A stretch of 64,000 nucleotides of DNA from an uncultured Pseudomonadota bacterium (lineage in GTDB: Bacteria; Oederibacteriota; Muellerivitia; Muellerivitales; Muellerivitaceae). The notes under the pieces were generated by a model that worked only from the letters and a program-made list of their open reading frames with translations, was not told the origin of the DNA and did no database searches. The stretch lies in assembly GCA_963843375.1 (NCBI GenBank), contig CAWJKT010000006.1, positions 256,001 to 320,000 on the forward strand, in the 5' to 3' direction. Shown piece by piece: positions 3 through 15,597 of the stretch. The number at the start of each line of letters is the position of its first letter. Within the stretch, counting starts at the first letter, position 1. The translations under genes and the position numbers were made by a program.

Positions 3-1709
3 GGCATAGCCCCCTATCCCCGTAAAGGTACAAGGCTCCGACCCATAAGGGAATGGCATGTTCAAGCTTACGCCGCCGGATAGGGTGATGCTTTTTCCAC
101 TCCCCAAACTGGAAAAACAATATCCCGCGGTGGCGGAGCCTCCGGCGGAGGCGAAACCGTAAAACTGATAATAATCGCCTACGTGAGGATTGTTGTTAAA
201 GGGGGAGTCGCCGATGGGATACCCCACCCCGCTGGCCCCGTAAATGATCCCGACATCATAGCTGGTGGCCGTGGTGTCGGTGATGACCACGGAGTTGGTT
301 ACGCTTTGGGCGTAAACCGAATTATATTCGTTCCCGTTAAAACCAGCGGCGACCACCCAAACCAACTGGTGGGTGCTGTTGACAGGGTACGTGGTCGTAT
401 TTATGTTGACGCCCAAGGTCACGGGGTCGCCATAGGAATTAATACCGTCATTAAGGTTTATCGGCTGGTTGTTTGGATTCCCGACCGAGCAGGAAACCGG
501 CACGGAATTGATATAGGTGACCGGATCGCTTGTGGTGGGCGTGGCCGAAGTGCTGGCGTTGCCTCCCACGTCATAGAAAGCCACCAAGTCAAAAGAGGGA
601 ATATTGCCGTTGGAATTAAGGAGGGACACGCTGAATTTACCCGGATTACTGGGGACGGTCGATGAGGTAATCAGGGTTCCATAGTTGGTTCCCGACTCGT
701 AAGCAAGGACGTGTATCCGGTTCGTACTGCTGACCGCATAACCATCGCTGAGGTTGTCGGTGAAGGTCACACCCCCCCCAACGCCTTGCGCGACGCTGCT
801 GTCCCCGAAATTGATATTGCCCAAATTATAGGTACCGGCGGTAAAAGTGGACCCCTGGGCCGGAATGCCGCCCTGCGTATTGGAATTTGAGCCGTTCCAG
901 TTGACATCCGTATAGGGCTCTCCAGGGAATGGACCCGCCTGGTCCACCAACCCGAGGTTTCCGGTCCTGCCGTTAAAGTCGTAATTGGCCAGGATGTAGT
1001 AGGTACCCGGGGAAGCCAGCGTCACGCTGAAGGAACCGCCGTTAGAGGTCACCGTCGTGGCCGCCGCGATGCTCACGCCGCTATTGCCGGCGATGTAGCT
1101 GCTGTTGTTATAGACCTCAATCCCAATCGCATCGGTGGAGTTCACTCCCGGGCTTGAGGCGAAACTGCCGGTGTAGGAGACACTGCCGCTTAATATCACT
1201 CCCGTGATCGTGGCAGTTACGGTGGCAGTTGGAGTCCCAGTGGGAGTCTTGGTCAGGGTGTACTGGCTAGTCGGGGTGGGGGTACCCGTTTGGGTGGGTG
1301 TGCCGGAATTAGTCGGCGTACTCGTAATCGTATAGGTCGCTGTGATGGTAGGAGTATTGGTAATCGTGGGGGTTGGAGTCGTGGTGGCGCTGTTGGTGGG
1401 AGTTCCGGAATTAGTAGGAGTGGCACTATTGGTCGGCGAGTTGGTAATCGTGTAGGTATCCGTCGTGGTGGCGGTGTTGCTGGGAGTGCTGGTAGGGGTC
1501 ACCGTGGCGGTGTTGGTCGGGGTCTGGGAGAAGGTCGGTGTACAAGTGTGTCCCGAACCGTCCGTACAGACGGTGTTGGTAACTGTGAAGGTAAAGGTGT
1601 TGGTGGGAGCGGCAGGGCTGGAAGGGCTGCTGCTTTTTGAGGGACATCCGATAGTTAAAAAAACAACTCCAATTAAAAGTGAAAATATTCCTATGATGCG
1701 AAGTTTCAT
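3..1709 (-). CDS. Secreted Thr/Pro-rich lipoprotein with beta-rich C-terminal domains (runs off left edge; absent from ORF track)
   Basis: Manual translation: MKLRIIGIFSLLIGVVFLTIGC (signal + lipobox-like Cys), long TPTNT/TPT linker, then Gly/Ser/Asn/Tyr-rich region; no stop before position 1; GAGG RBS upstream. Confidence 0.8.
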   Translation of the reverse strand, partial: MKLRIIGIFSLLIGVVFLTIGCPSKSSSPSSPAAPTNTFTFTVTNTVCTDGSGHTCTPTFSQTPTNTATVTPTSTPSNTATTTDTYTITNSPTNSATPTNSGTPTNSATTTPTPTITNTPTITATYTITSTPTNSGTPTQTGTPTPTSQYTLTKTPTGTPTATVTATITGVILSGSVSYTGSFASSPGVNSTDAIGIEVYNNSSYIAGNSGVSIAAATTVTSNGGSFSVTLASPGTYYILANYDFNGRTGNLGLVDQAGPFPGEPYTDVNWNGSNSNTQGGIPAQGSTFTAGTYNLGNINFGDSSVAQGVGGGVTFTDNLSDGYAVSSTNRIHVLAYESGTNYGTLITSSTVPSNPGKFSVSLLNSNGNIPSFDLVAFYDVGGNASTSATPTTSDPVTYINSVPVSCSVGNPNNQPINLNDGINSYGDPVTLGVNINTTTYPVNSTHQLVWVVAAGFNGNEYNSVYAQSVTNSVVITDTTATSYDVGIIYGASGVGYPIGDSPFNNNPHVGDYYQFYGFASAGGSATAGYCFSSLGSGKSITLSGGVSLNMPFPYGSEPCTFTGIGGYA

Positions 1710-1864
1710 TGAAATAACCTCAAATCGATATGGGGCGTTGGGAGGGGTGGGAGAAACTGTTTAACTAAAAAATTTTAGTTTGACCGTGAGCCGTAGGCAA
1801 CATAATAAATAACAGATAAAATTACACTTTTAATGTTAAATTTAAGTAAAAAAGGTTTTTAGTT

Positions 1865-1890
1865 GTCCCATGCACCTCCCCGTCGTGGAT
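1865..1890. repeat. 26-bp inter-module site, hybrid copy (GTCCCATGCACC-TC-CCCGTCGTGGAT)
   Basis: Right arm 11/12 to consensus, central TC and terminal GTCC at exact spacing; 29 bp beyond stop of the 1920 gene. Confidence 0.7.
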
Positions 1891-1919
1891 CGCGAAATCG
1901 ATTCTCTATCCCAATCCCC

Positions 1920-4619
1920 TTAAGGGGTGATTAAAAATTTGCCCCGCTGCAATACCATTTGGCCGTTCTGAATCACGTAATAGTAAATTCCAGGTGAGAC
2001 GGTCGATCCTTGCTGGTTCTTCGCCCCGACCCATTCGGTGGGGTCTCCCGACTGGCTGATACTGTTGACCAGTTCGCCCGAAAGGGTGTAAATGAAAACC
2101 TGCGCACCTGCGGGCAGGCAGCTGATTCTCAGAGAATGGTTCAAGGCCCAATGGGGGCTGTAAGGGTCAGGCCAGACATGAATGGCACAGGGAGGCGTCG
2201 AAGTTGGTGTAACAGAAGAAGTGGTGGTAAACGTGGCGGTCAAGGTGATGGTAGCCGTTATGGTCGGGCTGTTGGTAGGAGTGTTTGTGGGGGTCTGCGT
2301 CACCGTGGGGGTAACAGTATTCGTTGGTGACAGAGTCGACGGGGGAGTGACAGTTGGCGTGGAGGTAGCTAAGGCAAATTTGGTGACGAAAGCGTCGCCG
2401 AAGCCCCCCGTATCCCCGATAACGGTTTGATAGGCACCGGCCGTGATTGGGAAATTGGCAGAAGTCGTCATGCCGGTAATGTAAAGCCCTCCCGAACCAT
2501 CCATGGCCAAGCCTTGCCCATATTCAACGGAGCTTCCCCCTAAATAAGTGGAATAAAGAAGATTCGTGCCGGTCGGGTTCAATTCAAAGAGAAACGCATC
2601 CTGCGAACCCCCCAGGGCGGTTTGGAAAGCCCCCGGGGTGGTTGGGAAATTGGGGGAGGCGGTCCATCCCGAAACGAAGGCGTCTCCACTGGAATCCACC
2701 GCCAAGCCATACGCATATTCCGCGACGGTACCGCCAAGATAAGTGGAATATGCCAGGGAGGCTCCACCAGCGTTCAATTTAGTCACGACCGCATTTTCAC
2801 CCTTTTGAACCGTTTGATAGGCTCCGGAAGTTATGGGGTAGTTCGTCGCGTCGGTGGAGCCGCCCACATAGGCATTACCGGCTGAGTCCACCGTGATCAC
2901 TCCCCCGTAATTGTTGCCGTTCCCCGCAAGGTAAGTGGAGTACACCAACCCGCTCCCCGAAGGATTCAACTCGGTTACCATGATATCGGAGGCCCCGGTG
3001 ACGTAATTGGGTTGGAACGAGCCTGGGGTGGTGGGAAAACCGCCCAGGGTGTAGCCCACGACATAGGCATCATCAGCCGGGTCCAGGGCGATCCCGAACC
3101 CATCGGAGACATCGGTCCCGTTCAGGTAAGTGGAATAGACCAAGCCGGTTCCGTTGGGGTTCACCTTGGTGATGAAGAGGCCCGAGAGGGGTGGTGCGAC
3201 GGTTTCATAAGCCCCGGATGTAGTTGGAAAGTTTGGCGAGCTGACATCGCCTTCCACATAAGCGTTGCCCCCGGCGTCAACCGCGATGCCGGTCCCTTCA
3301 TCGTTCTGGGATCCTCCCAGGTAAGAGGAATAGACCAGGGCCGAACCCGTAGGATTGAGTTTGGTGACAAAAGCGTCATAATCCCCTCCCACGGCCGACT
3401 GGAAGGCACCCGGAGTGGTCGGGTAATTGGTGGTACCGGTGAAACCGGTGACATAGGCGTTCCCGCCTCCGTCCAAGGCGATGGCGGAGCCCTCGTTGAC
3501 GGGTCCGCCCAAGGTTGTACCGGGGTCCGCGATGGTCCCCCCTAAAAAGGTGGAATAGACCAGAGCGGTCCCGGTGGGGTTCAACTTCGTCACGAACGCG
3601 TTGAAACCAGCGATCGTATTCTGGAAAGCGCCAGCCGTGATCGGGAAATTGGTGGAGTCGGAATAACCCACGATATATGCATTCCCCCCGGCATCCACCG
3701 CGATGCCCGTGCCCTCTTCCTGGCGGATTCCCCCCAGAAATGTGGAATAGGCCAGCACAGGATCGATGACCAGAGGCTGGGTGCGATCGTAAGTTCCCAC
3801 CCGGAACCCGATGATGCCCTTTCCCACAAGGGCGTATCTTCCATTCACGATCATCCTCCGGCCAGCCAGATCCTGATAGGCCACCGGCGCCTTGAAGACC
3901 GCCGCCCCCTGACCCCTTCCTAAATATAGGTCCCCCTTACCGTCCAGATGAATCCCCCGGGGACCGCTATAGGCCAGCCGGATCTGCCCCGGGTCGGCGC
4001 CCGGTTTTAAGACAAAGTCATACTCCAGCCGGCCTTGCCGCCCGTAATAGACCATGTCGATGCCGGTATAAACGTCCTTGGCCACGACACGACTATATTG
4101 GGGGATGTTCGAATGCCATTTTTTGGGGTCGTTACCGAGGAAATAGTTGCTGTGGCCGAGGAGTTTTTGATCCCCTTCCCAGGAAGCCCGGGGATCAGCT
4201 CCTTTGAGCCCCAGCCAAACCGTTTGGTGAGAACGGGGCGAAGGCTTGGTACTTGGAAGTTTCGGCGAATACCATACATGGGTCTCTTTCCTTCCCAGCC
4301 CCTCGGGCCCTACCCATGACAAGAAGGCTCCTGTTTCGGTCAGAAAAAGAGTGTAACCCGATCCCCGAGCCAGGAACTTGACCTTTGAGTCGGCCTGCCC
4401 CTCGTTGGGTTCGAAAGCCAAGGGCAGAAGGCCGAAGGTGTTTTTAAGGTCAATCAGGGATGGATCATGAGGAAAAAATCGGGAAGGCACGCCGTGGAAT
4501 ATCCTCTGGAAGAAGTTCCGGACAGGAACCGGCGACCGATAGACGAAAAAACCAATCACCAAGACGAAAAGAAGGGGCCCCATGGCCAAACTGACCGGTC
4601 GAAAAAGACACCACTTCAT
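1920..4619 (-). CDS. SBBP-repeat beta-propeller protein with N-terminal beta domain, Thr/Pro linker and FlgD-Ig/CTD-like C-terminus
   Basis: Repeats 'LVYSTYLGG..D.G.GIAVD..GNAYV.G.T.S.NFPTT.GAFQ'; 'FEPNEGQ' and 'LEYDF' N-terminal motifs; C-terminal 'YTLSGELV...W...SPGIYYY'; ATG at 4619 after GGAGGG. Confidence 0.8.
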   Translation of the reverse strand: MKWCLFRPVSLAMGPLLFVLVIGFFVYRSPVPVRNFFQRIFHGVPSRFFPHDPSLIDLKNTFGLLPLAFEPNEGQADSKVKFLARGSGYTLFLTETGAFLSWVGPEGLGRKETHVWYSPKLPSTKPSPRSHQTVWLGLKGADPRASWEGDQKLLGHSNYFLGNDPKKWHSNIPQYSRVVAKDVYTGIDMVYYGRQGRLEYDFVLKPGADPGQIRLAYSGPRGIHLDGKGDLYLGRGQGAAVFKAPVAYQDLAGRRMIVNGRYALVGKGIIGFRVGTYDRTQPLVIDPVLAYSTFLGGIRQEEGTGIAVDAGGNAYIVGYSDSTNFPITAGAFQNTIAGFNAFVTKLNPTGTALVYSTFLGGTIADPGTTLGGPVNEGSAIALDGGGNAYVTGFTGTTNYPTTPGAFQSAVGGDYDAFVTKLNPTGSALVYSSYLGGSQNDEGTGIAVDAGGNAYVEGDVSSPNFPTTSGAYETVAPPLSGLFITKVNPNGTGLVYSTYLNGTDVSDGFGIALDPADDAYVVGYTLGGFPTTPGSFQPNYVTGASDIMVTELNPSGSGLVYSTYLAGNGNNYGGVITVDSAGNAYVGGSTDATNYPITSGAYQTVQKGENAVVTKLNAGGASLAYSTYLGGTVAEYAYGLAVDSSGDAFVSGWTASPNFPTTPGAFQTALGGSQDAFLFELNPTGTNLLYSTYLGGSSVEYGQGLAMDGSGGLYITGMTTSANFPITAGAYQTVIGDTGGFGDAFVTKFALATSTPTVTPPSTLSPTNTVTPTVTQTPTNTPTNSPTITATITLTATFTTTSSVTPTSTPPCAIHVWPDPYSPHWALNHSLRISCLPAGAQVFIYTLSGELVNSISQSGDPTEWVGAKNQQGSTVSPGIYYYVIQNGQMVLQRGKFLITP

Positions 4620-4825
4620 ATGCCCTCCCAATAAAAACCCCCGCGATCAAGCCTTTGGGTCCAGACGAAGAGGGGTCCATAAGTCTTCTAAATACAAAAC
4701 CAATTAATATGGATTTTATCACCAAACCGCAGCCCTCTTGATAAAAGCAGGTCACTTTTTCCGCTTTTTTGGAACAGGTCAGGTTTGAATTTCATGTTGA
4801 ATAGCGTTTTATTTTAATTATTTAG

Positions 4826-5266
4826 TCAGCTCACCTTTTTTCTATTTCGAGGCTTAAACCCATATCTTATTGCCACTTCAAGTACATCAATGTTTATATC
4901 TTTCAGCGTTTTGAACTTAATGCAATATCCGCTCACACTCACCTTGCCGAGTTTTTTTCCGTATGTTCTGGCTAAATATTTCTTATCCTTGATACCAAGT
5001 ATATAGACAGAGATTCCGGTTTTGTTTGCACTGATACCAATTCGATAAAACTCTCTGGTTTTTCCTCCCGCATATTTTATGGTTTGAAACCCATATCCTA
5101 TATTAGGATTAGAAATAATTTTATTCTCGCTGTTTTTACCGCCCAAGAACCATAATTTACACGCTGGCATTACTTGAAGAATGATGCGGTGCAACGCTTG
5201 CATGTCGCTGTGTTTTGGTTCAGGTTGGCTACTAATATACTTTTTGATTTGTTTTTGAACGTTCAT
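4826..5266 (-). CDS. DUF1801 (YdhG-like) domain protein
   Basis: 'KKYISSQPEPK...LHRII...NIGYG...GKLGKVSVSGYCIKFK' pattern; visibly AT-rich relative to neighbours. Confidence 0.7.
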   Translation of the reverse strand: MNVQKQIKKYISSQPEPKHSDMQALHRIILQVMPACKLWFLGGKNSENKIISNPNIGYGFQTIKYAGGKTREFYRIGISANKTGISVYILGIKDKKYLARTYGKKLGKVSVSGYCIKFKTLKDINIDVLEVAIRYGFKPRNRKKVS

Positions 5267-5362
5267 ATAAATCCGGGATTCCCCAGATGACTTCTCCCTA
5301 CAACATCGCCGGTTAATTTGTTCCTCATTTAATTCCCCTCCTTCCCCCTGCTTCCTTTACTT

Positions 5363-5386
5363 GTCCAATCTTGGTCCCCGTCGGAC
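5363..5386. repeat. Degenerate inter-module site (GTCCAATCTTGG-TC-CCCGTC--GGAC)
   Basis: Variant left arm GTCCAATC.., central TC, right arm with 2-bp deletion; flanked TT/AA. Confidence 0.6.
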
Positions 5387-5454
5387 AATTATTCCTGGGA
5401 ATCTCGCCGCCCTCACAACAACTTGTCTGGGGAATGATCAACAAGTTGGCCGCC

Positions 5455-6039
5455 TTAGGCTCCAATAGTACCTGTCTTAACTTTTCCGGCCCGCTTGTAA
5501 TTGGCAAAGATCACTCCGGTTGGCGTTACCATACTCTCGGTTAATGTAAATGCCGCCGGAATCGCGCCACCGTCAAACAACTTTTTTCCTTTACCAAGGG
5601 TCAACGGGCAGATCCTGAGCCAGAGTTCGTCCACTAAATCATTCTTCAGTAGAAGTTGAATGAGCTCACCACTGCCGTGAACTTGAATGTCAGGACCTTT
5701 TGAATTTTTGAGCTTTTTGATATCCGCTGAGCTTTTGATAAAAACTGAGTTTTTCCAATCCGACTTTTTCAGGGTCTTGGACAGGACATACTTTGTCCCT
5801 TCATTGATGCCTGGCCAAAAGTCTGAATGTTTAGGCCAATAGGGGGCCCAACTCTCAAACGTTTTTCTGCCCAAAAGATAATCCGCGGGTTTCGAAAGTT
5901 GTTCCTGGACCTTCTTCCTCCCAACTTCGGTAATATAAGGCGCAATCCAACCGCCATATTTGAAACCGCCTGATTTATCTTGCCCAGCTTGCATAACTCC
6001 ATCTAATGTAATAGCTGATAAGACGATAATTTTTCTCAT
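5455..6039 (-). CDS. Dihydrofolate reductase-like (RibD C-terminal family) protein
   Basis: 'ITLDGVMQA', 'LLGRKTFE', 'VHGSGELIQLLLKNDLVDEL', 'GKGKKLF'; ATG at 6039 after GGAGG. Confidence 0.85.
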   Translation of the reverse strand: MRKIIVLSAITLDGVMQAGQDKSGGFKYGGWIAPYITEVGRKKVQEQLSKPADYLLGRKTFESWAPYWPKHSDFWPGINEGTKYVLSKTLKKSDWKNSVFIKSSADIKKLKNSKGPDIQVHGSGELIQLLLKNDLVDELWLRICPLTLGKGKKLFDGGAIPAAFTLTESMVTPTGVIFANYKRAGKVKTGTIGA

Positions 6040-6116
6040 GTAATCGCCCCCTCCAAAGTTCAATTGTTAAATAAAATTCCAAACACAAACTGCGACATTT
6101 TAATTAATATTCTTTT

Positions 6117-6142
6117 GTCCACGATGGGTCCTCGTCAATGAC
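6117..6142. repeat. 26-bp inter-module site (GTCCACGATGGG-TC-CTCGTCAATGAC)
   Basis: Left arm 11/12 to consensus, right arm divergent; TT/AA extension. Confidence 0.75.
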
Positions 6143-6247
6143 AACTTCATTGTTCATTAAGTCTTCACTAACGTGCGAAACGCAAAAACCCGCATAGTGT
6201 GCAAAGGAGCCTTGATCTAAGTCGATAGCATCAATCCCGCCCCATCG

Positions 6248-6664
6248 TCAAAGCAGCCCACGATGGCCTCGATAGTCCGAATTTTTATCAAGTCCACGCT
6301 CTTGGATGACTTTCCCGGCCGCAGCTAACGCCGTCGCAACAGCCGGAAATCCCACATAAGGCAGCGCCTGAACCAGGGCCTCTTCGATTTCATCGAGGGT
6401 GAGGCCATTGTTGAGAGCAATATTCATGTGGATCGCGAACTCATTTGGCTGCCTCAAGGCGATCATGACGGCCATCGACACCAGACTGCGCGCTTTCCGA
6501 TCCAAGCCCGGCCGAGTCCAGATTTCGCCGAAGGCCTGATCAATTGCAAATCTCGCAACCATTGAGCCAAACGTGCCTGATTCGGCGGATGCCAATAGTC
6601 GCTCCGAAGTTTCTTCGCCCATTAATTCGACTATGATTTTTTCACCTGCTTCTCTTCGTTCCAT
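6248..6664 (-). CDS. Carboxymuconolactone decarboxylase (CMD/AhpD-like) family protein
   Basis: 'FGEIWTRPGLDRKARSLV...HMNIALNNGLT..EIEE...YVGFPA'. Confidence 0.85.
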   Translation of the reverse strand: MERREAGEKIIVELMGEETSERLLASAESGTFGSMVARFAIDQAFGEIWTRPGLDRKARSLVSMAVMIALRQPNEFAIHMNIALNNGLTLDEIEEALVQALPYVGFPAVATALAAAGKVIQERGLDKNSDYRGHRGLL

Positions 6665-6721
6665 AACCACCCCCCAAGTTTGTTCCATCGATCAAATTAT
6701 TACTATAAATAGGAACGCCCC

Positions 6722-6747
6722 GTCCACGACGGGTTCCCGCCGTGGAC
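6722..6747. repeat. 26-bp inter-module site (GTCCACGACGGG-TT-CCCGCCGTGGAC) within a 42-bp hairpin 6714-6755
   Basis: Near-perfect palindrome extended by AACGCCC/GGGCGTT. Confidence 0.9.
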
Positions 6748-6868
6748 AGGGCGTTTCGCCCGCTTGACCATAAAATTATTTTAATTTATTTGAAACAACT
6801 TTTTGGCAAGATTTGAAAGGTTCAAAACGCGTTAAGTTTAAACGGGGATGAAAAAAAGCCGGGCAACA

Positions 6869-8224
6869 TCATCCCGGCAGGGGCTTGGTGACGAGCGTCG
6901 AGAGATAGTCCCTTAACGCGTCCAATTCCTCCGGTGTGCCCACGATCTGCGGCATATAGGCGTGGTAGGGGGAATCAGGCTTGTCCTCGTGTAGTATTTT
7001 CAAAAGACTTCCGATGGCTTCCTTGTCCCTTCCGGCCAAAAGCTGGTTTATGGGCCGGTAGCCGTCCACGGTGTGGCAGGACATGCATTGGCCCCGGAAC
7101 ATGGCCTCGCCCACCGCCAAATGCGGGTCCCCTCCCTCCCTCACCCAGGAGGAATGGGTCAAAAAGCCGTCGTTGTTGAATTTGTCCACCGACTTCAGGC
7201 GAACCCCGTTGGAGAACATGTGCCCCACGATGATGTAGGGCTTGCGAAGCATTTCCCGCACATATTCGGAGGAGGCGGTGGCGCAGAGCCCCAATAGCAA
7301 TATGGCCATGGCGTGGCCCGGGCGGAAGTCGTTTGGCGAGCGCCAAGCGAAGAAATAAACCACCCCCACCACCGTAACTGAGGTCATCAGGATGACTAGG
7401 ACCATTCGGGTCACCTGGGTGAACATTCCCTTGCCCATGGTGGCGATGCCCAGTTCCAAAAGGCCCCTCTGGGATTCGGGAATCTGGTGGAGGAACCATA
7501 GCAAAAGAAAGGGCATGCTGAAAAAAAGCGGCAGAAGCCATTGGGCGCTCCAATGCACCAGTTCGGCCCGCAAGGCGGCATCCTCATGGCCCATGCGGCT
7601 GTAGGAAACCAATGCCCAAACCCCCGCAAGGGAAAAGCAGACCCCCATGCGGAGAAAGAGGCTGGGCCAATAGGTGGGGTTAAAGAAAGCCTCCCAAAAG
7701 CGGCTGGACTCCTGCCCCGTGCCGGCCACCGAAAGCCATGCGGCCCCAGGAGTCAGCTTGAAAGTAAGGATGCCGTTGATGATGATAAGAGTGAAAAGAG
7801 AGGAAACCGCGTAAAGAAGCCCCACTTTCAAGTGCAGTTCGTCGGAAATGCGGCCCCAGGTGTAGTAATAGACCGCCACGGTGCTGAGCTCCACGATGAA
7901 GAAAACCCACTCAATGGCCCAACCGAAGACGAAGTTGTGGATGAGGGTGCTAGTGGCCTCGGGCGCGGCCAGGCCGATGGCGAACCAGATGCCCACCCCC
8001 GAAACCGTACCGAAAACGCCCGTCACGAGCAGGAAGAAGCGCGAGTGTGCCTGGATGATCTTAAGCCAGTCCAACCGGCCGTCCTTGAGGGCCTTGCGTT
8101 CGGCGAAATAAAGGTAGATGCCCCCGCCCACGGCGAACTGGGAAATCATCACGTGGAAGATGGCGATCATGCCGATCACCCATCCGCTGCCGGTGAAGGG
8201 GACGACCCAGAAGGGATAGTTCAT
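6869..8224 (-). CDS. Cytochrome bd subunit I (CydA)-like oxidoreductase with C-terminal c-type heme domain
   Basis: 'AIFHVMISQFAVGGG', 'GTVSGVGIWF', 'WAIEWVFF', 'EYVREMLRKPY' CydA-like motifs; CMSCH heme-c motif; no long Q-loop apparent. Confidence 0.8.
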   Translation of the reverse strand: MNYPFWVVPFTGSGWVIGMIAIFHVMISQFAVGGGIYLYFAERKALKDGRLDWLKIIQAHSRFFLLVTGVFGTVSGVGIWFAIGLAAPEATSTLIHNFVFGWAIEWVFFIVELSTVAVYYYTWGRISDELHLKVGLLYAVSSLFTLIIINGILTFKLTPGAAWLSVAGTGQESSRFWEAFFNPTYWPSLFLRMGVCFSLAGVWALVSYSRMGHEDAALRAELVHWSAQWLLPLFFSMPFLLLWFLHQIPESQRGLLELGIATMGKGMFTQVTRMVLVILMTSVTVVGVVYFFAWRSPNDFRPGHAMAILLLGLCATASSEYVREMLRKPYIIVGHMFSNGVRLKSVDKFNNDGFLTHSSWVREGGDPHLAVGEAMFRGQCMSCHTVDGYRPINQLLAGRDKEAIGSLLKILHEDKPDSPYHAYMPQIVGTPEELDALRDYLSTLVTKPLPG

Positions 8225-8241
8225 TTTTTAAAATCTCCTTT

Positions 8242-9312
8242 TCAAACGCCCAGGTAGCCCCAGACGGTCAACCCCGCCAGGAGCCCCAGGACCAGAAGGC
8301 CGAAATAGGTGGCGTTTTTCCCCCGTCGGCCCGAATTGGAAACGGGGTCATAGAGGGGGACGAGGAACCACAACACCAATCCTAGGGTGAAAAGCACGAG
8401 CCCCAGGCTTTCCCCCATTTCTCCCGGAAAAAGCTTCCCGAAAACCTTGAGCACCTGAAAGGAACTCATGAAATACCATTCGGGATGGATTCCAGGGGGG
8501 GCGGACTTAAGTAAATCAGCCTGGTCACCCAGTTCCCAGGGAAAGAGGGCGGCGAAAAGGGTAAGCAGGTTGAGGGTGATGAGCCACATGGCCAGATCCT
8601 GCATCATGAAGTTGGGAAAAAAGGGGATGCTTTTGCGCTTGGACGGCTGGACCGATACCTCGGACGGCGGCAGGGCGTTGCCGTGCTTCTGCACCAGCCA
8701 GAGGTGAAAGGCCAGGAGGGGAATGAAAATGGCGGGCATGACCACCACGTGCAGGGCGAAAAAACGCTGGACCGTGGTGGCCGTCACGTCCGAACCGCCC
8801 CGGACGATGCTCGAAATCTGGTGACCGATTAGGGGGAAATGGGTGGGAATATCCAGCCCCACCTTGGTGGCGAAAAGGGCTAGCTCGTTCATGGGCAAAA
8901 GATAGCCGCTGAAGCCCCAGACCATGGTGAGGATGAGGAGGAAAATACCGCTCCACCAACCGAATTCCCGGGGACTGCGGTAGGCCTTCATGAAAAAGAC
9001 CGAGAACATGTGGACGAAAATTGCCAGCACCATCAGATTGGCGGCCCAGGAATGAGTGGAGCGGATGAGCCAGCCGAAATTAATCTCGTAACTGATTTGC
9101 CGCACCGACTCATAGGCCGAGGGGCCAGGCTGGTAATAGATGAGCAAAAGCACGCCCGTAACCCCCTGGACGAGGAAGAGGAAAAGCGAGATGCCGCCCC
9201 AGTAATACCAGAAGGAGTGCTTGTGCTGGGGCACGGTCTTGTGGCTGGCGAATTCGATGATCTCGCTTAGGCCGAGGCGCTCGTCGACCCAGTTGTAGAT
9301 TTTCTTGTTCAT
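8242..9312 (-). CDS. Cytochrome b (bc-type complex, b6 + subunit IV fused)
   Basis: Heme His pairs in 'RSTHSW...FVHM' and 'FALH...AFHL'; PEWY motif. Confidence 0.92.
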   Translation of the reverse strand: MNKKIYNWVDERLGLSEIIEFASHKTVPQHKHSFWYYWGGISLFLFLVQGVTGVLLLIYYQPGPSAYESVRQISYEINFGWLIRSTHSWAANLMVLAIFVHMFSVFFMKAYRSPREFGWWSGIFLLILTMVWGFSGYLLPMNELALFATKVGLDIPTHFPLIGHQISSIVRGGSDVTATTVQRFFALHVVVMPAIFIPLLAFHLWLVQKHGNALPPSEVSVQPSKRKSIPFFPNFMMQDLAMWLITLNLLTLFAALFPWELGDQADLLKSAPPGIHPEWYFMSSFQVLKVFGKLFPGEMGESLGLVLFTLGLVLWFLVPLYDPVSNSGRRGKNATYFGLLVLGLLAGLTVWGYLGV

Positions 9313-9322
9313 TCTCTTTTTC

Positions 9323-9778
9323 CTAAGTTCTGGATACGGCCACGCCGCCGGGTACCACTTTGGCCACGTAAAGGGTTAAGGGCCGGGGCGGGGGCCCGCT
9401 GATGTTTTTTCCTGTTTGGGCGTCGTATTCGCCGCCGTGGCAATTGCAATGGATGACGTTGCGGACCGGCAAATATTCCACCGTGCAGCCCAGGTGGGTA
9501 CAGACCGCGTCCATGGCCACCCAATTTCCGTCCTCATGGTGGATGAGGAGCGAGGGCCGGGAACCGAAGCTGAACATCAGGACACTCCCTTTTGGGAGGT
9601 TTTCCGCGTCCTTCAAAGTGACCTCGGTGACTGTGGACATGCCCGCTTCCTTCTCGGCGGGCGAGGTGAGATAGCGGTAGACCGGATAGCCGATGGCTGC
9701 CCCGTAGCAGGCCCCCACGCCTAGGACCGCCACCTTCACGAACTCGCGGCGGGTGATGGGCATCTTCGGATCAGTCAT
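9323..9778 (-). CDS. Rieske 2Fe-2S protein
   Basis: Tat-like 'TRREF', CTHLGC and CNCHGGEYD boxes, 'GPPPRPL'. Confidence 0.93.
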   Translation of the reverse strand: MTDPKMPITRREFVKVAVLGVGACYGAAIGYPVYRYLTSPAEKEAGMSTVTEVTLKDAENLPKGSVLMFSFGSRPSLLIHHEDGNWVAMDAVCTHLGCTVEYLPVRNVIHCNCHGGEYDAQTGKNISGPPPRPLTLYVAKVVPGGVAVSRT

Positions 9779-10883
9779 GACTCCCTCCTTCGAGGATGGG
9801 TTTTGAACGCATCAGCACGGAGATCAGCCAGGCTAGGGCCCCGATACCGAGGACGAAAACCCAAAGGAAGGTCACCACCACCAACCAGTTGGTGACGACA
9901 GGCTGGCTCCAAACGTCAAAGCCCTTGTGGGCCAGGGTCACATCACGGATGCCGTCCCGGAGGATAACCCAATTGGCCACAGCCAAAAGAGCCATCAGCG
10001 CGGCCACATAACCGGCGGCAGGACCCCGGGGTTTTTTCACCACGGTCCAAAGCCCAAAAAGCAGAATCACCAAAGCCAATGGGTAATAGGTAAAGGAAAC
10101 CATGCTGTAAAAGCCATTGGCGGAAAGTCCTGAACTCACAAAATCCGGCTGGTTGGAAATGATGAGGTAATAGGTGACGGCCTGTAGGAGTATGCCCAAG
10201 ACGGCCATTTTCCCCCCCAGGCCCGACAGGTAAAGCTTGAGAGGTTCCTGGACGCTCTTGCGGCCCGCGATCCAGACCATCCAGAAACCGGACACCCAAA
10301 GGGCGCCGCAAAGCATGAAGAGCCAGCGGGGGTTCAGGGTAGGGTCGTAGGGTGGTATTTGATTTCCCAAGGGAGCGGCGGAATACATGTCGCGCCAAAC
10401 CTCCGGCTTGAGCATGAGTGCCATGTTGGTGGATAAAATGCGGGAGATGATCCCGGCCAAAAACAGAGAAGCAAATCCCTTGAACCATGGCTTTTTCCCT
10501 GCGGCCACCCCATCCGAAAAACCGTAGAGCAGCCAATAACATGCCATCAGCAGGAGGATCACAGAAAACCAGAAGAAACCGATCAGCACATTGGCGGTAT
10601 AGAGAGCCGGACCGTAGAGCACCTGGGCAAAGAGGAGCGGCGGGATACCCAGGTTGATGACGTAGGTCATGACAATGGGAAGTCTTTTAGCTAAGGCTTT
10701 TGCCGCCTCCTGCCGCTGGGCGTTGGAGGAACCGAGGAGATTGAGCAGGATGGCTGTCAGGAGTCCACCCAGGAACATCTTCACCGCAATGAAGTGGAGG
10801 CTGAGGGTAAGGACGTCCAACCCCTTGAATAGCCAGACAGGCGCGGGCAGAGGGATGGGGTCGGTCCAGGGAAAAAGGTTCAT
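9771..10883 (-). CDS. Polytopic membrane protein, probable second (CydA'-like) subunit of the bd-like oxidase
   Basis: About nine hydrophobic segments; 'TLSLHF', 'INLGIPPLLFAQVLYG'; overlaps Rieske start; first gene of operon. Confidence 0.6.
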   Translation of the reverse strand: MNLFPWTDPIPLPAPVWLFKGLDVLTLSLHFIAVKMFLGGLLTAILLNLLGSSNAQRQEAAKALAKRLPIVMTYVINLGIPPLLFAQVLYGPALYTANVLIGFFWFSVILLLMACYWLLYGFSDGVAAGKKPWFKGFASLFLAGIISRILSTNMALMLKPEVWRDMYSAAPLGNQIPPYDPTLNPRWLFMLCGALWVSGFWMVWIAGRKSVQEPLKLYLSGLGGKMAVLGILLQAVTYYLIISNQPDFVSSGLSANGFYSMVSFTYYPLALVILLFGLWTVVKKPRGPAAGYVAALMALLAVANWVILRDGIRDVTLAHKGFDVWSQPVVTNWLVVVTFLWVFVLGIGALAWLISVLMRSKPILEGGSHD

Positions 10884-10979
10884 GGAATAAGGCGCTCCAT
10901 TTTTTGACGAAAACCCTGCAAGCTTTCCCCCCGATTGCGCGGAATGCACCAAAGGTTATTTCATGTGTACTTTTTGTTC

Positions 10980-10995
10980 TATGATCAAAATCATA
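10980..10995. promoter_or_regulatory. Crp/Fnr-like palindrome TATGAT-CAAA-ATCATA
   Basis: Perfect 6-4-6 inverted repeat resembling TTGAT-N4-ATCAA, ~100 bp upstream of the respiratory operon. Confidence 0.5.
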
Positions 10996-11097
10996 TTGGA
11001 CAGATATTCACCCTGCCCATGGGCGAAAGCAAGAGGCAAGACGGATTTAGATAGCCGGATTAAAAATAAATCTTGTTGATATTTTAGTAGTGTGGTT

Positions 11098-11123
11098 GTC
11101 CACGACGGGTCCCCGCCGTGGAC
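11098..11123. repeat. 26-bp inter-module site (GTCCACGACGGG-TC-CCCGCCGTGGAC)
   Basis: Near-perfect palindrome extended by GTT/AAC (11095-11126); 44 bp beyond stop of the 11168 gene. Confidence 0.92.
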
Positions 11124-11167
11124 AACTGATTCATTTTAAGATGGTTGATATTGGCTGGGTTTTATTG

Positions 11168-11731
11168 TCAGCCATCGATGACTTTTAAGCTTTTCAACTG
11201 GCGCAGTATCCGCATGTCCTCGGCCATATCCCCGATTTTTTCGGCCCATCGGCGAAGGTACTTTTTATCGAGGAACGGTCCTTGCCGGGCCACAATGGCT
11301 TCGACGTCCGCCAAATCTTTTGTCCTTCCAGGAATCAATTTTAAAAGGATTAAATCTTCCGGCGAAGGCATGGGAACCATCCGCCCAAAAAGCTTTAACG
11401 AAACCTTTCGGCTCAAGGCGGAACGCTCCAATTCAGTGGAGGCGATAATCACGTCCACAGGGACCTTCCGAAAAGCGATGGTAAACGCCCCTCTGGTCTT
11501 TGCGCCATAAATGGCTTTTTGAGGATTGACTTGAAATTTTTTGCCTGCTTTTTTAAGGAAGGCGGGCAAACCCGCCTTCTCGATGAATAAAATAAGGTCG
11601 ATATCCTGGGTCATTCGCGGCTGGCCCGAGGCCAAAACCGCCAATCCACCGATCAACAGATAATCCGCTTTGGTTTCTTTGAGAAGGGAAATCAGCTCGT
11701 GGAAGGCCGACTCAATGGGATTGGTGGACAT
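11168..11731 (-). CDS. Nucleotidyltransferase-fold protein (DUF6036/AbiEii-like)
   Basis: 'YLLIGGLAV...GQPRMTQDIDL', 'VDV', 'SPEDLILLKL..GRTKDLADV'. Confidence 0.8.
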   Translation of the reverse strand: MSTNPIESAFHELISLLKETKADYLLIGGLAVLASGQPRMTQDIDLILFIEKAGLPAFLKKAGKKFQVNPQKAIYGAKTRGAFTIAFRKVPVDVIIASTELERSALSRKVSLKLFGRMVPMPSPEDLILLKLIPGRTKDLADVEAIVARQGPFLDKKYLRRWAEKIGDMAEDMRILRQLKSLKVIDG

Positions 11732-11927
11732 AAAAGGAAAGCGCCATGGGCTTATCGTGTCGCAAATTGGGTTTTTTCGCGTTGAAGGCGGCCCGAATCA
11801 GGTTTTCCCCCATGCGAATACTTTCCTTCAACGAAAGCTTTCGCAGGGAAGACCGGTTTTCTTTTTCGCTGTATTTCTTGAATCTTTTGGGGTTCTTAAC
11901 CATGGTTGAATTCATTGTAGGGGGCAT
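11712..11927 (-). CDS. Small basic protein, putative partner/antitoxin of the nucleotidyltransferase
   Basis: Overlaps start of the NTase gene; 71 aa basic; typical bicistron arrangement; start uncertain. Confidence 0.55.
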   Translation of the reverse strand: MPPTMNSTMVKNPKRFKKYSEKENRSSLRKLSLKESIRMGENLIRAAFNAKKPNLRHDKPMALSFYVHQSH

Positions 11928-12037
11928 TCACGGCAGGTTCAACGTGTATTGGTCCGTCTTGAAATTTCCATCCCTGTGGTTTAAGCCTTTCTAGGGTAAA
12001 AATTGGACCCACTATCATTTTCGCCGTCCAATACACT

Positions 12038-12063
12038 GTCCACGACGGGTCCCCGTCGTGGAC
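12038..12063. repeat. 26-bp inter-module site, perfect copy (GTCCACGACGGG-TC-CCCGTCGTGGAC)
   Basis: Perfect 12-bp arms plus CT/AG extension (12036-12065); 27 bp beyond the GH43 stop. Confidence 0.93.
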
Positions 12064-12090
12064 AGGTTATATTTTTAATCTTGATCCAAT

Positions 12091-14194
12091 TTACTTTTGG
12101 CGCATGATCTCGATGGCGCAGACCTTGGCGTTATGGACCGAGGAAACGAATCGTAGATGGATCATCCCATCCGCGTCCGGGCTGGATGTCCGGGAAGCTT
12201 TTATCGACAGCCTTGTCGAAGGCCCCCGCCTCCTTGAGGATATCGAAATGGGCGAGAACCTTTTTCCCGTTGATGAGAATATCAAATACCCTATCGCCTT
12301 CTTTCTTCACGTTGGTCTCGGCGAACCTCAAATGAACCTGGTACTTACCCGGTAACACCGGAAGGGAATAACTGAAATCCCTCCCGTTGCGTTCGAATTG
12401 ATATAGTTCCTGCGTCCGGGTTCCAGCGATGGAATCCCAACAACGGGCCACATCCCCATCGGAATAGCCAATATCCGACGACCAGTACAAACCATCCTTG
12501 TCCCGGAATTCTTCCCAGCCGGTTCGGATGCGCCAATGGTCCGTGGGGGCCAGGGGTATGGGATTGGGCTGCGGCGAGAGGGACACTTGTTCTGGGACGA
12601 CCCCGGGTAGCATTTCGAACCAGTCGAAGTCCGCGTAATTCTCGGATTCCTTGCCGTTGGCCGTGGCATAGAGGCCGACCACTGTTCCGGTAAAGCCGCC
12701 AGCCTTCTCCCGGGAAAGATCGGCGGACGGGCAAGCCGCGAGGTTGTTCCAGGTCTTACCGTCGTTGGACCAGGCGAATTGGTACCGGTCTTCGGTGCCG
12801 GAAATCTCCAGTTGGACTTTGCCCGATTTCATCGGTTCTTGGGCAATCATATATTCCCGGTTTTTAATCCGGTTCCGTACGAATAGCCGGGTTTCCCCGC
12901 CGAACCGCCCCAAGCCAACCTCATAATGGTTATCCTCGTTGGCCCGCACACAAAGACCCGCCTCCTCGCCGTCTTGCAGTGGATTAAATTCCATCTCGGT
13001 ACGGGCGCTAAAACGGAACGAGGTCTGGCGCCGGCCCACGAAAGCGGGATCTTCAAAAATGGTGTTCAGGCTGTCCTTGGTCGCCCGGATTCGGAGATAT
13101 CCTTTCCGTTCCGTCAGGGAGAAATTTTCCGGGTCAAAATTTCGGATATGCAGCCACTCAGGGCCCAACTGGGAGCCGGTAAAAAGGGTCCTCGGTTGGG
13201 GAGCCTCCACGGCGAACAGCTTTAACTTTGGTGCTTCCATTTCCAGGGCAACATGGTGGTTTTTACCCGCCACTGGCCAACCATCCAGTGTCCATTGGAC
13301 AGGCGTGAGAAAGGTTTCCCGGCCCAGCACCGACATGCCGCCCTGGGGCCGGGTTCCGAGGAAAACTAGCCACCAGGTTCCGTCAGGAGCGTCAATTAAG
13401 TCGGCGTGTCCCGCGCATTGGATGGGGCTTTGGGGATCGTCGCGTTGGGTGAGGATGGGATTATGGGGGCAGGACTCAAAAGGGCCCCAAGGGCTGCTGC
13501 TCCGGGCCGCGACTTCTTGATGATAACTTCCGGTTCCACCCGTGGCGCTGATGAGATAGTACATCCCTTTGATCTTGTACATGTGCGGGCCCTCATTCCA
13601 TTCGCCCTGGTATTCCCAAGCCTTCTTGAAGGGTGTTTTCAGCTTCAGGCTGGACGGGTCTAATTCGGCCTGCGCGATGCCGTTCCCATTGTCGGCCCCG
13701 GCATGGTCGTAATAGATCTTCCCGTCGTCGTCAAAGAACATGGAACCGTCGATCCCGTAATCGTTCAGCCAGACCGGCTCCGACCAGGGGCCCGCCGGGT
13801 CCTTGGCGGTGACGATGAAATTTCCCCCTCCGCTGACGTTGTCGCAGGTCAGGTAAAAAGTCCCCTTCCAGTAGCGAAGGGTTGGCGCGTATAGGCCGCC
13901 CCGGTCCGACGCCCCTTGGAGGGGCAACTGGCTGGGGCGGTTCAGGGCATTTCCGATGAATTCCCAATGGACTAGGTCACGGCTGTGGTAGATAGGAAGG
14001 CCGGGGAAATACTCGAAGGTGGAATTGGTGAGGTAAAAGTCCTCCCCTACCCGGCAGATGCTGGGATCGGGATGGAAACCGGTCAGGATGGGATTCTTGA
14101 AGGTTTTTAACATGGTCTTGGCGTCCGCCTTATCCACCATCCCCGAAAACCACAGGGAGATGGCCATGATTGGACCCAAAAATCTAAAGCGCAT
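12091..14194 (-). CDS. GH43 beta-xylosidase/arabinofuranosidase with C-terminal malectin domain (1-bp frameshift near 12180)
   Basis: 'NPILTGFHPDPSICRVGEDFY', 'WNEGPH', 'GHADL', 'GFTG'; malectin 'LHFAE/FDILING'-type motifs continue as 'DGMIHLRF...NAKVCAIEI' in the 12091..12285 frame; ATG 14194 after GGAGG. Confidence 0.88.
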
Positions 14195-14298
14195 GAGGCC
14201 TCCTTTGGGACTGGGTCGTTTGATTATAGACCAGGGATAAGGTGGTTGAGAAAAAACGATTTGGGAACAGGAGTTGGATTGGACAGCGGTTATTAATT

Positions 14299-14324
14299 GT
14301 CCACGATGGGTCCCCGTCGCGGAC
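14299..14324. repeat. 26-bp inter-module site (GTCCACGATGGG-TC-CCCGTCGCGGAC)
   Basis: Each arm 11/12 to consensus; TT/AA extension; 34 bp beyond the DUF202 stop. Confidence 0.9.
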
Positions 14325-14358
14325 AAAGCCCGAACCTCGATTTTCCCATTCGGCCCGG

Positions 14359-14754
14359 CTAATTATTCACGAGAAGATAAACCGCCATTACGAGGCCAAT
14401 GAGACCCAGTCCCAAGGCAATTCCGATTCCCAAATAGGATGGTTTGATCTCGGGGGTTTCTCCCAGTTTAAGAAAGGAAACAAAGCGCACATAGTCGGCA
14501 ACGACCAACCCTTGAACCAGGACCCCCGTTAAAACCAAAAGTGTTCCAAACCACATAGACCATCCCGAGTGTCCGGGCAAGGAGTTATCAACCCGCCCTT
14601 GAATCATGCGCAGGAACAAGCTGAAACGGGCAACGACGAAACCGAAACCCATCAGGGCCAAACCGGTCCTGATCCAAGCCAGGAAGGTTCGTTCCTTCGC
14701 CCAAAAAATTCGAGGATCGACATTTTTAAACTGGTTTTTGGTGGATGTTTTCAT
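14359..14754 (-). CDS. DUF202 / YidH family membrane protein
   Basis: 'DPRIFWAKERTFLAWIRTGLALMGFGFVVARF'. Confidence 0.88.
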   Translation of the reverse strand: MKTSTKNQFKNVDPRIFWAKERTFLAWIRTGLALMGFGFVVARFSLFLRMIQGRVDNSLPGHSGWSMWFGTLLVLTGVLVQGLVVADYVRFVSFLKLGETPEIKPSYLGIGIALGLGLIGLVMAVYLLVNN

Positions 14755-14796
14755 GTTGGATATTTTCGCCTGTCGATAATTAAAAAGTGCCCTGTA

Positions 14797-14988
14797 TTAA
14801 CCCCAAACATTTAAGATCGTCTGTGCCTTCGTCCAATCCGGATCCCCGCCGTGGGCAAAATCAGCCGCCTTATTTGTTTTTTTGTCTTCGTCGATCTTGA
14901 GGATTTCCCTGACCTTTTCCATGAAATCCGGTTTCAACCCCTGGTAATGTCCCGAGACGTCGATATTCCCGGTACCCGGGAACTCCAA
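14797..14988 (-). pseudogene. Possible relic of a tyrosine recombinase C-terminus
   Basis: 'PGTGNIDVSGHYQGLKPDF' has the spacing of the LGH-x8-Y-xxLxPD box II with His replaced; in-frame stop just upstream; lies next to the tRNA. Confidence 0.25.
14831..14856. repeat. 26-bp site, tRNA-proximal hybrid copy (GTCCAATCCGGA-TC-CCCGCCGTGGGC)
   Basis: Right arm 11/12 to the 11098 copy; left arm of the GTCCAATC class seen at 5363; exact 12-2-12 spacing. Confidence 0.7.
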
Positions 14989-15285
14989 TCCATCAAGACA
15001 ATAATTGGAAAAACGTTAAAAGCCCATCTTTTTTTAGGCAGGATTCGTTCCTCTTTAGCTCCAACTCTCCCTTTTCGGTTTATTTTCGGGTTATTTAAAA
15101 TCTTCAACTCCATTTTACTCCTCAAAATCCTTTCTGAGCCCTACCCAAAAACTGGTCAAAATAAAGTCAAGGTGCCTTTAAAAAAAATAAAAAGAGGCCG
15201 GTTAAGCATCGCCCCCGGGAAGATCAAAAGGCTAGTCGGTTTTAACCGGTTTTTGCCGCCCTTGCCTGCCTCTAACTGCCACAAC

Positions 15286-15327
15286 AAAAAAACCTCCACC
15301 GAAAAAACATAACGAGTGGAGGCTTTT
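15286..15327 (-). terminator. Intrinsic terminator downstream of tRNA-Thr
   Basis: CCTCCAC/GTGGAGG stem followed by T-tract on minus strand. Confidence 0.6.
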
Positions 15328-15570: not shown

Positions 15571-15597
15571 CAGGGTAAACCGGACTTTTAAAAAACG

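Follow-up and report, generated by a model that had tools for sequence, protein, structure and literature searches.

The window, a 64,000-nt stretch of contig C6 in the 4.05-Mb genome of an uncultured soil bacterium (G000; 32 contigs, 80% complete), carries in its left part an array of small gene cassettes, each ending in a 26-bp palindromic site. It is probably a recombinase-less cassette array served in trans by a serine recombinase of ~277 aa, and the palindromes are most likely the crossover sites of that enzyme. A cassette consists of a short leader, a single gene (in some cases two genes or an operon) and a site, TT-GTCCACGACGGG-GA-CCCGTCGTGGAC-AA, in which two 12-bp half-sites flank a central dinucleotide (12-2-12). 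The analysis shows the anatomy of the site, its clustering, the cassette-wise gain, loss and re-assortment of cargo with breakpoints at the sites, and the tight linkage between recombinase gene and site. New here are the link of a serine recombinase to the sites and the structure of a platform in a genome of the same genus (G001, 99% complete; the congener).

The original prediction, made from the letters of the window, had counted eight copies of the palindrome, with the asymmetric centre in one orientation throughout. With up to three mismatches allowed, the 26-mer GTCCACGACGGG-TC-CCCGTCGTGGAC occurs at 6722, 11098, 12038 and 14299 and at no other place in the 64 kb (0 matches in 100 shuffles of the window), which bears out the statement that the rest of the window holds no full copy. 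The other four copies, at 1865, 5363, 6117 and 14831, are present only in decayed form, with one recognisable half and the centre kept. On the plus strand the centre reads TC in seven of the eight sites and TT at 6722, so the claim of a uniform centre stands with that one exception. All genes between the sites lie on the minus strand and are unrelated to each other by Pfam, as had been proposed; in gene sense, the site reads GTCCACGACGGG-GA-CCCGTCGTGGAC. Seven sites had been placed 27-121 bp past a stop codon, and the gaps measured for the minus-strand open reading frames (ORFs; ORF table) are 29, 66, 105, 121, 44, 67 and 34 nt, while the eighth site, at 14831, precedes the first cassette. The array extends ~2.1 kb past the left edge of the window, to C6:253,915. 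Its features within the window are as follows.

1865 to 1890, minus strand: decayed site that ends the SBBP cassette; in gene sense ATCCACGACGGGGA followed by GGTGCATGGGAC, a good left half (one mismatch) and an unrelated right half.
1920 to 4745, minus strand: SBBP cassette, a 903-aa DUF7948/SBBP beta-propeller protein with a weak CHU_C tail (Pfam), with ~110 nt ahead of the start codon.
4826 to 5266, minus strand: DUF1801-like gene of 146 aa (Pfam), with no site of its own downstream; 82-83% identical to copies in two other genera.
5363 to 5388, minus strand: decayed site with a right half of the B-type variant and, apparently, two bases deleted from the left arm (sequence read directly).
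5455 to 6063, minus strand: cassette gene for a RibD_C-domain reductase of 202 aa (Pfam).
6117 to 6142, minus strand: decayed site with a single recognisable half (one mismatch).
6248 to 6688, minus strand: cassette gene of the carboxymuconolactone decarboxylase (CMD) family, 146 aa (Pfam); 85% identical to G005:C70.
6722 to 6747, minus strand: full site with centre AA/TT, inside a longer 42-nt palindrome (-39.4 kcal/mol).
6869 to 10952, minus strand: four-gene module (Pfam) with a 393-aa unknown protein, a Rieske protein of 151 aa, cytochrome b of 356 aa and a protein of 451 aa whose N-terminus resembles cytochrome bd subunit I.
11098 to 11123, minus strand: full site, one mismatch.
11124 to 12037, minus strand: DUF6036/AbiEii-like nucleotidyltransferase (NTase) cassette, with a gene of 187 aa at 11168-11731 (Pfam).
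12038 to 12063, minus strand: perfect site, GTCCACGACGGG-GA-CCCGTCGTGGAC in gene sense.
12131 to 14298, minus strand: GH43 beta-xylosidase-like cassette with a malectin domain (Pfam).
14299 to 14324, minus strand: full site, two mismatches.
14359 to 14754, minus strand: cassette gene for a DUF202 membrane protein of 131 aa (Pfam); 81-83% identical to copies in other genera.
14831 to 14856, minus strand: upstream-most array site, GCCCACGGCGGG-GA-TCCGGATTGGAC, with a B-type right half; the variant half GTCCAATCCGGA is joined to a half with two mismatches.
15397 to 15472, minus strand: tRNA-Thr(cgt), at the right-hand end of the DNA missing from G001.

The GH43 ORF as called enters the next site, so its true start probably lies further in.

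The anatomy of the site was drawn from 347 sites in G000, in the arrays of G001 and in 70 metagenome loci. In this set, the nearest upstream ORF lies on the strand of the site in 298 of 323 cases, the median gap is 24 nt from stop codon to site and 72 nt from site to next start, and the consensus is TT-GTCCACGACGGGGACCC-NNNN-TGGAC-AA. When the selection of sites leaves the inner arm positions free, the four inner bases on the left are mostly CGAC, and the mirror positions on the right vary (GTCG, ATCG, TTCG, GCAT, GGAT, GGAG). The inner 4-bp stem pairs by Watson-Crick rules in 902 of 1384 cells, leaving 35% unpaired, and no covariation was found in it. Wobble pairs number 73 G-T on the sense strand and 100 A-C, which would be wobbles on the other strand; this absence of strand bias gives no sign of selection on the fold of one strand, and an attC-like strand-specific fold was rejected for that reason. 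Folding energies are -18 to -39 kcal/mol for the four full window sites (z -3.1 to -7.8), and the decayed sites that were folded, at 1865 and 14831, do not rise above shuffles (z 0.6 and 0.2). Because inner bases are often unpaired, wobbles show no strand bias and the decayed sites that were folded do not rise above shuffles, the repeat looks like a double-stranded protein-recognition site rather than an RNA or single-strand structure.

The coding-strand U-tract of a terminator, which had been described as missing throughout, is absent at seven of the eight window sites; the remaining one, 6722, is called terminator-like. Terminator-like calls total 20, no more than the 23.8 of shuffles. Site 6722 lies at the heart of a 42-nt perfect-stem palindrome (6714-6755, AACGCCC...GGGCGTT) and is the sole window site with this terminator-like character. 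An Rfam search of window positions 1-17000 at E up to 1 returned only the tRNA and three sub-threshold chance matches.

The sites are strongly clustered. The window genome has 39 places with at most three mismatches to the 26-mer (0 for a reversed-pattern control) and 65 sites with at most two mismatches to the 17-mer core GTCCACGACGGGGACCC; at up to three mismatches, the 96 sites compare with 14 raw matches of a reversed-core control. Fifty-three of the 65 sites (82%) fall in 7 clusters that total 77.6 kb, or 1.92% of 4.05 Mb, and orientation is nearly uniform inside each cluster. Dispersal in the manner of ordinary repetitive extragenic palindromes (REPs), named at the outset as an observation that would speak against capture, was thus not seen.

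The core, at no more than one mismatch, recurs in 21 of 24 other genomes of the family, spread over more than 13 genera, with as many as 100 copies in one genome, typically spaced 0.5-2 kb apart on one strand. Sixteen genomes of other families have 0-2 matches each. In named public genomes, multi-copy loci occur, among the matches listed, only in metagenome-assembled genomes labelled 'candidate division FCPU426', and single core matches in high-GC genomes look like chance. A metagenome scan gave at least 137 stretches with the site, many with long regular arrays; 70 of these loci were analysed, after overlapping duplicates (L203 and L204) had been dropped. Within the family, G003 has three matches at up to three mismatches, G024 has one, and the 97% complete G017 has none. 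A dif-type site would be expected once per chromosome in every genome of the lineage, and the last result excludes the site as the dif of the family; the original prediction had stated that the sites do not match dif or pdif.

Comparison with the congener shows that cassettes come and go as units. G001 is collinear with G000 up to C6:253,915 and again from C6:271,391, at the 3' end of tRNA-Thr, and the 17.5-kb array between these points (C6:253,915-271,390) is replaced by ~122 bp; gene order is therefore not identical in relatives. For the SBBP module (window 1867-4742), the counterpart in G001 is C2:420224-423118, at 88% identity. It forms part of an array at another locus that is specific to G001 and separates genes whose orthologues are neighbours in G000. 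The homology stops at the outer edge of the site, and the same hybrid site accompanies the SBBP cassette in G001. The RibD_C, GH43 and DUF202 genes match other places in G001 at 75-80%, and no DNA match exists there for the cytochrome module or for the NTase, CMD and DUF1801 genes. Seen from the other side, 37 of the 52 inter-site segments of G001 lack a DNA match of at least 200 bp in G000, and 8 segments match site-bounded segments in other arrays, with other neighbours and with homology that ends at site edges. Two cassettes that are adjacent in G000 sit on different contigs in G001.

Exchange extends beyond the genus. From site to site, the NTase cassette (11095-12064) is 82% identical to G005:C44:2516-3476, in another genus, and beyond the two sites the DNA is unrelated. 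Copies of cassettes in other genera share 80-87% identity with those of G000, whereas the flanking tRNA-ruvA core DNA reaches 67-75%, a difference that points to exchange across genus boundaries. At 87%, the GH43 gene is closer to genomes of genus g12 than to the congener (80%). This gene stands in a core-like context with no site in G012 (C4:1254372-1256459), is followed by a left half-site only in G022 (C51:130-2174) and has full sites in G000, possibly a snapshot of a core gene becoming a cassette. Capture and stacking of gene modules, as originally proposed, is thus supported by turnover with breakpoints at the sites. For whole operons the proposal is more tentative, since the cytochrome module would be the single instance: no sites accompany its homologues in G002, G046 and G009 (69-78%) within the DNA examined there, and a second instance of the operon as a cassette was not found.

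According to Pfam, the 166 ORFs of eight array regions in G000 carry cargo typical of chromosomal integrons. There are many toxin-antitoxin pairs (Phd/PIN, YafQ/RelB, HigBA, MazF, VapBC), together with GNAT acetyltransferases, glyoxalase, aldo-keto reductases, CMD, RibD_C, YCII and DoxX proteins and nucleotidyltransferases. The RibD_C cassette also occurs twice at one locus (L183, G042:C26:135001-144686), 79-80% identical to window 5383-6064 and with sites on both sides. Its two copies lie in oppositely oriented arrays of one contig, as expected after an inversion or inverted duplication between sites.

Ten public sequencing runs were listed for the stretch, eight of which hold at least part of it, all as assembled contigs; four were compared. 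Apparent skips in these contigs, 11125>12037 and 12064>14298, were rejected as artefacts, as the 28-29 letters on one side are the repeat itself, and loose contig ends at sites show only that the site has many contexts. Over the GH43 cassette (12206-14122), contigs of three runs (X1-X3) carry ~35 consistent base differences, with neighbouring cassettes exact; this could be a second allele or a paralogue of the cassette in the same communities.

The candidate enzyme emerged from a search of the family for the Resolvase domain, which gave matches in 12 of 31 genomes, including frames of ~280 aa that adjoin known sites. An intact short recombinase is present in G000, G001, G022, G042 and G045, which represent four genera; these orthologues of ~277 aa are 68-86% identical, and all five share the motif YVRVSSKEQ and the same end point. 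In G000 the gene lies at C9:137160-138005, on a contig other than that of the window. Pfam assigns Resolvase PF00239 to residues 13-159 (model 1-144 of 145) and Recombinase PF07508 to 187-271; the Recombinase domain is the only one found after the catalytic domain, in place of the helix-turn-helix of resolvases and invertases, and the protein stops at 275-281 aa. The nearest long relatives (507-515 aa, 50-57% identical) have in addition Zn_ribbon_recom (PF13408) at 286-337. In a large protein collection, all 19 clusters at 74% identity or more measure 275-283 aa and lack PF13408, and the next matches drop to 61% identity or less. This pattern indicates that the short form is a real family rather than a random truncation. 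Viral contigs yielded only a 523-aa long-form relative, without sites.

The gene is tightly linked to the site. A protein search over 99 genomes of the phylum gave nine recombinase copies with the 3' end in view, five intact and four fragmentary, in 7 genomes, and a site follows just past the 3' end in all nine. In the five intact genes, 9-41 nt separate stop codon and site; for the G046 fragment, the position of the stop is inferred. The loci of five long-form relatives, by comparison, contain no site. This adjoining serine recombinase gene lends support to the serine-type 12-2-12 geometry suggested in the original prediction. The recombinase gene is convergent with the cassette genes, the half-site facing it is of a special kind (GTTCCTTTTGGG, GTTCACTTTGGG or GTCCCCTAGGGG), and in several genomes a 17-bp perfect palindrome lies ahead of this half-site. 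A trace of the same arrangement remains elsewhere on contig C6 (48,600-49,742, locus L152), where inspection by eye found ~40 nt of a recombinase 3' end, the 17-bp palindrome and a proximal-type site (C6:48664) beside an IS30-like transposase gene; this remnant indicates that another array of G000 once had its own recombinase. Further cases of recombinase plus site occur in the metagenome loci L265, L238, L083 and L129.

Among the recombinase loci is the platform of the congener. Read on the recombinase strand, it runs GTCCCCTAGGGG-TC-CCCATCGTGGAC, cassette, standard site, cassette, GTCCATGACGGG-TC-CCCCAAGGGGAC, and its outer halves mirror each other at 11 of 12 positions, as a near-palindrome. 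From these mirror-image halves, two cassettes appear to have entered a 12-2-12 palindrome beside the gene, through exchange at the central TC or right beside it. Serine recombinases break both strands at the central dinucleotide and swap half-sites, and an asymmetric centre gives the exchange its polarity. In large serine integrases, the recombinase domain and the zinc-ribbon domain together cover a half-site of 25 bp, with the zinc ribbon placed over base pairs 16-24 or 11-19 and directionality imposed by its coiled coil (PMC3783163). By extension, a protein with the recombinase domain alone would need a half-site of ~12 bp, which matches the one observed, and a protein without the zinc ribbon would lack directionality control, which would suit reversible excision and insertion.

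We infer that the short recombinase cuts the sites, that it does so at the central dinucleotide and that circles form. In the mechanism proposed, a recombinase dimer would bind each site, two sites would pair, four strands would be cut at the asymmetric central GA/TC, and the half-sites would be swapped and rejoined. Between two sites in the same orientation, the DNA would be excised as a circle with one site, and all array sites point the same way, so that any two could release what lies between them. Such a circle may re-enter at any site; co-oriented cassettes would then pile up, with hybrid half-sites left at array ends. Hybrid sites such as those at 1865, 5363, 6117 and 14831 would result from insertion at imperfect targets.

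Several observations weigh against this reading. GGG/CCC flanks the centre in all half-site types, so the breakpoint can be placed only within ~3 bp. The SBBP cassette retains its unrelated right half in two genomes, which strict exchange at the centre does not predict; the window array is without a clean pair of hybrid end-sites; and the ~122 bp of the empty locus in G001 contain no recognisable site. No excised circle, empty site or polymorphic junction was seen in the public-run contigs, where joints have fewer than 31 letters on one side. The enzyme itself is patchy: it is intact in only 5 of 31 family genomes, and the array-rich, 98-99% complete G010 and G005 have no Resolvase-family match at all, so that most arrays stand without an enzyme. 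L265, L238, L083 and L129 are not independent cases, as their DNA was fetched for holding a site. In G000, a group II intron (C9:135156-137125, L156:3156-5125) interrupts the site that adjoins the recombinase; it has a reverse transcriptase/maturase ORF at C9:135607-136983, a 5' end GTGCG and a 3' end ...CTAC. Finally, the neighbours of the recombinase include ArdC-like genes in G042 and G045, RadC and a toxin-antitoxin pair in G045 and PRiA4_ORF3 in G000, and the short recombinase could serve a mobile element as integrase, with the sites no more than its target.

This last possibility is part of the alternative that survives best, although we regard it as unlikely: the sites would be used by a different enzyme, a tyrosine recombinase or a host Xer-like one, and the short serine recombinase would be a mobile-element integrase landing in abundant sites. 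IS1111-type elements and group IIC introns use attC as a landing place in this way. The 34-bp form of the site can be read as 13-8-13, GGTTGTCCACGAC-GGGGACCC-GTCGTGGACAACC, with the 8-bp centre GGGGACCC conserved as a tyrosine overlap would need, a conservation that is partly due to the construction of the site search. Mobile-element genes do lie 5' of the recombinase in G042, G045 and G000, most array-bearing genomes are without the short recombinase, several ~370-aa tyrosine integrases are present in every genome, and the group II intron shows that other elements home to the sites. However, no tyrosine recombinase stands beside the arrays of G000 (14 in the genome), of G001 (8) or of the 70 metagenome stretches, where Pfam was run on 75 of 156 ORFs of at least 255 aa and found no tyrosine or serine recombinase, only one IS3-like and one IS110-like gene. 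The short recombinase at L265, detected by tblastn, is outside those 75 ORFs, and no protein family recurs at array edges among the 70 loci. The ~370-aa integrases, about seven paralogues per genome in this lineage, adjoin tRNA genes like ordinary island integrases and are not at array edges. Xer-like use is further opposed by G017. Moreover, the G001 platform holds cassettes between the halves of a recombinase-flank palindrome instead of an element inside a cassette site, and no second junction of the putative element was found in G001, G022 or G042.

Less probable still is that the repeats are REP- or terminator-like palindromes that travel with accessory genes and are exchanged by homologous or short-homology recombination, with no dedicated recombinase. 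Module exchange at repeats has been proposed for the promoter/stem-loop seams of T4-type phages, and identical repeats of 26-34 bp could support rare RecA-dependent exchange. The strong hairpins of the four full window sites just past stop codons would fit this alternative, as would the lack of a nearby recombinase in most arrays. Yet the copies are clustered instead of dispersed, no RAYT (PF01797) scores over the cut-off in G000, and the U-tract is missing at seven of the eight sites. It is the sequence that is conserved and not the pairing: the inner stem has neither covariation nor consistent pairing, and the same 17-mer is kept over more than 13 genera. Hybrid half-sites also switch at the centre, and a conserved recombinase gene lies beside the site in nine of nine copies.

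An ordinary integron remnant, that is a cluster of attC sites lacking an integron integrase (CALIN) with an unusually short attC, is very improbable: co-oriented arrays, typical cassette cargo and the usual lack of a nearby recombinase would suit it, but none of 31 family genomes exceeds the 265-bit cut-off for the integron integrase (TIGR02249; best 84.5 bits), the 26-34-bp site has no strand-specific structural signature, and its GTT is 5' and its AAC 3', the reverse of attC (RYYYAAC ... GTTRRRY), in agreement with the earlier statement that attC boxes are absent, which a reading of the site sequences confirmed.

The position of the window array next to a tRNA gene, which had been made part of the original prediction, is incidental, and the tRNA plays no part in the mechanism. 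tRNA-Thr(cgt) is indeed in place, but it was rejected as a hot spot of the family: none of seven other genomes with 3.7-12 kb of DNA past this tRNA carries an array at that spot (another two loci, of ~160 bp, were left out for their shortness), and the majority of arrays have no tRNA as neighbour. Among 46 tRNA genes, tRNA-Thr(cgt) is the only one that matches the B-type half-site plus centre (15/17 in the 12-2-12 register, GTCCGATCCCGG-TC-CCC), on the strand opposite to the array sites. This match may have arisen by chance, represent a pseudo-site or hint at where the variant halves came from.

The tyrosine recombinases close to arrays in two other genomes were also set aside. The one near the G003 array is an ordinary island integrase, with tRNA-Asp ~10 kb off at the other end of the island, and is 77% identical to a G000 copy that abuts tRNA-Asp; a recombinase trio beside one G012 array looks like a separate element. 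In G000, ~370-aa tyrosine integrases 58-77% identical to the G003 copy are found at C6:226038-227246 and six other places, and the one checked lies directly beside tRNA-Asp and is syntenic in G001.

To our knowledge, phylum FCPU426 has no cultured member, and cassette capture by site-specific recombination is known essentially from integrons and, at a much larger scale, from the staphylococcal cassette chromosome (SCC). A literature search, with subscription journals mostly outside it, found no account of cassette arrays with this site, nor of any cassette-associated serine recombinase that lacks the zinc ribbon. The arrays show how genera of peat and soil bacteria pool and trade accessory genes, among them toxin-antitoxin pairs, small enzymes and a glycoside hydrolase, and the origin of cassettes becomes testable with the same GH43 gene at hand without a site, with a half-site and with full sites. 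If the reading is correct, this would be a second, independently evolved system of cassette capture, and a very small recombinase with a 26-bp target would form a compact recombinase-site pair of possible use as a tool.

The system can be compared with several known ones. REPs and bacterial interspersed mosaic elements (BIMEs) are dispersed genome-wide and linked to a RAYT transposase gene. Like them, the sites described here are GC-rich palindromes of ~26 bp just downstream of genes; unlike them, 82% of the copies occupy 1.9% of the genome, no RAYT was found in G000 and the copies mark cassette breakpoints. The hix and gix sites belong to the invertases Hin and Gin, which have a C-terminal helix-turn-helix, need an enhancer and Fis, and only invert. 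They share the 26-bp 12-2-12 geometry, the asymmetric central dinucleotide and a serine recombinase with the present system, in which, by contrast, the DNA-binding part is a 'recombinase domain' and the sites are direct repeats bounding cargo. The candidate enzyme thus belongs to the serine recombinase superfamily, with the catalytic and recombinase domains of the large subfamily and with neither the zinc ribbon nor the helix-turn-helix of resolvases and invertases.

The dif modules of Acinetobacter plasmids, bounded by pdif sites and dependent on XerC/XerD (PMC6449649, PMC13141974), resemble the cassettes as small accessory modules with bounding sites of ~28 bp and no dedicated recombinase beside them that are shuffled between replicons. 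The pdif sites are dif-like in sequence, alternate in orientation and are plasmid-borne, whereas the present site is missing from a 97% complete genome. Tandem accretion driven by serine recombinases has its nearest counterpart in SCC, where the large serine recombinases CcrAB/CcrC act at rlmH and composite islands arise (PMC13739063, bioRxiv 10.1101/336396). SCC elements likewise accumulate in tandem between short direct repeats, some without a recombinase of their own. They differ in scale and target, being tens of kb with many genes and a single target in one gene, compared with units of 0.5-4 kb at many loci here, and in enzyme architecture, with full-length recombinases that keep the zinc ribbon and coiled coil absent from the short one.

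The closest resemblance in overall behaviour is to the integron. An attC site measures 55-140 nt, has the arrangement R''(RYYYAAC)-L''...L'-R'(GTTRRRY), is conserved in structure and not in sequence, and folds in a strand-specific way. Sedentary chromosomal integrons and CALINs (PMC4889954) are systems of the tyrosine recombinase IntI with attC and attI. As in integrons, co-oriented and mostly single-gene cassettes each end in a recombination site, the cargo is rich in toxin-antitoxin pairs and acetyltransferases, turnover between close relatives is very high, many arrays have no recombinase gene, one platform has cassettes in a site beside the recombinase gene, and a group II intron that interrupts a site is reminiscent of the group IIC introns that target attC. 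The present site is instead a double-strand palindrome of 26 bp that is conserved in sequence, no IntI was found, and the candidate enzyme, a serine recombinase, is encoded at the downstream end of the array and convergent with the cassettes; there are also many arrays per genome, with a site sequence common to the whole family. The system thus works like a chromosomal integron but has neither of the two features that define one, IntI and attC. We see an even chance that it is a self-contained integron analogue made of unrelated parts and spread family-wide in FCPU426, which seeds recombinase-less arrays and trades cassettes between genera; as part of that joint reading, and with the same even chance, the 277-aa enzyme would have shed its zinc ribbon, coiled coil and directionality control and would keep a 12-2-12 entry site after its own stop codon. 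What these arrays offer is the logic of the integron in an uncultured phylum, built on a plain double-strand site of 26 bp and probably on a truncated serine recombinase.

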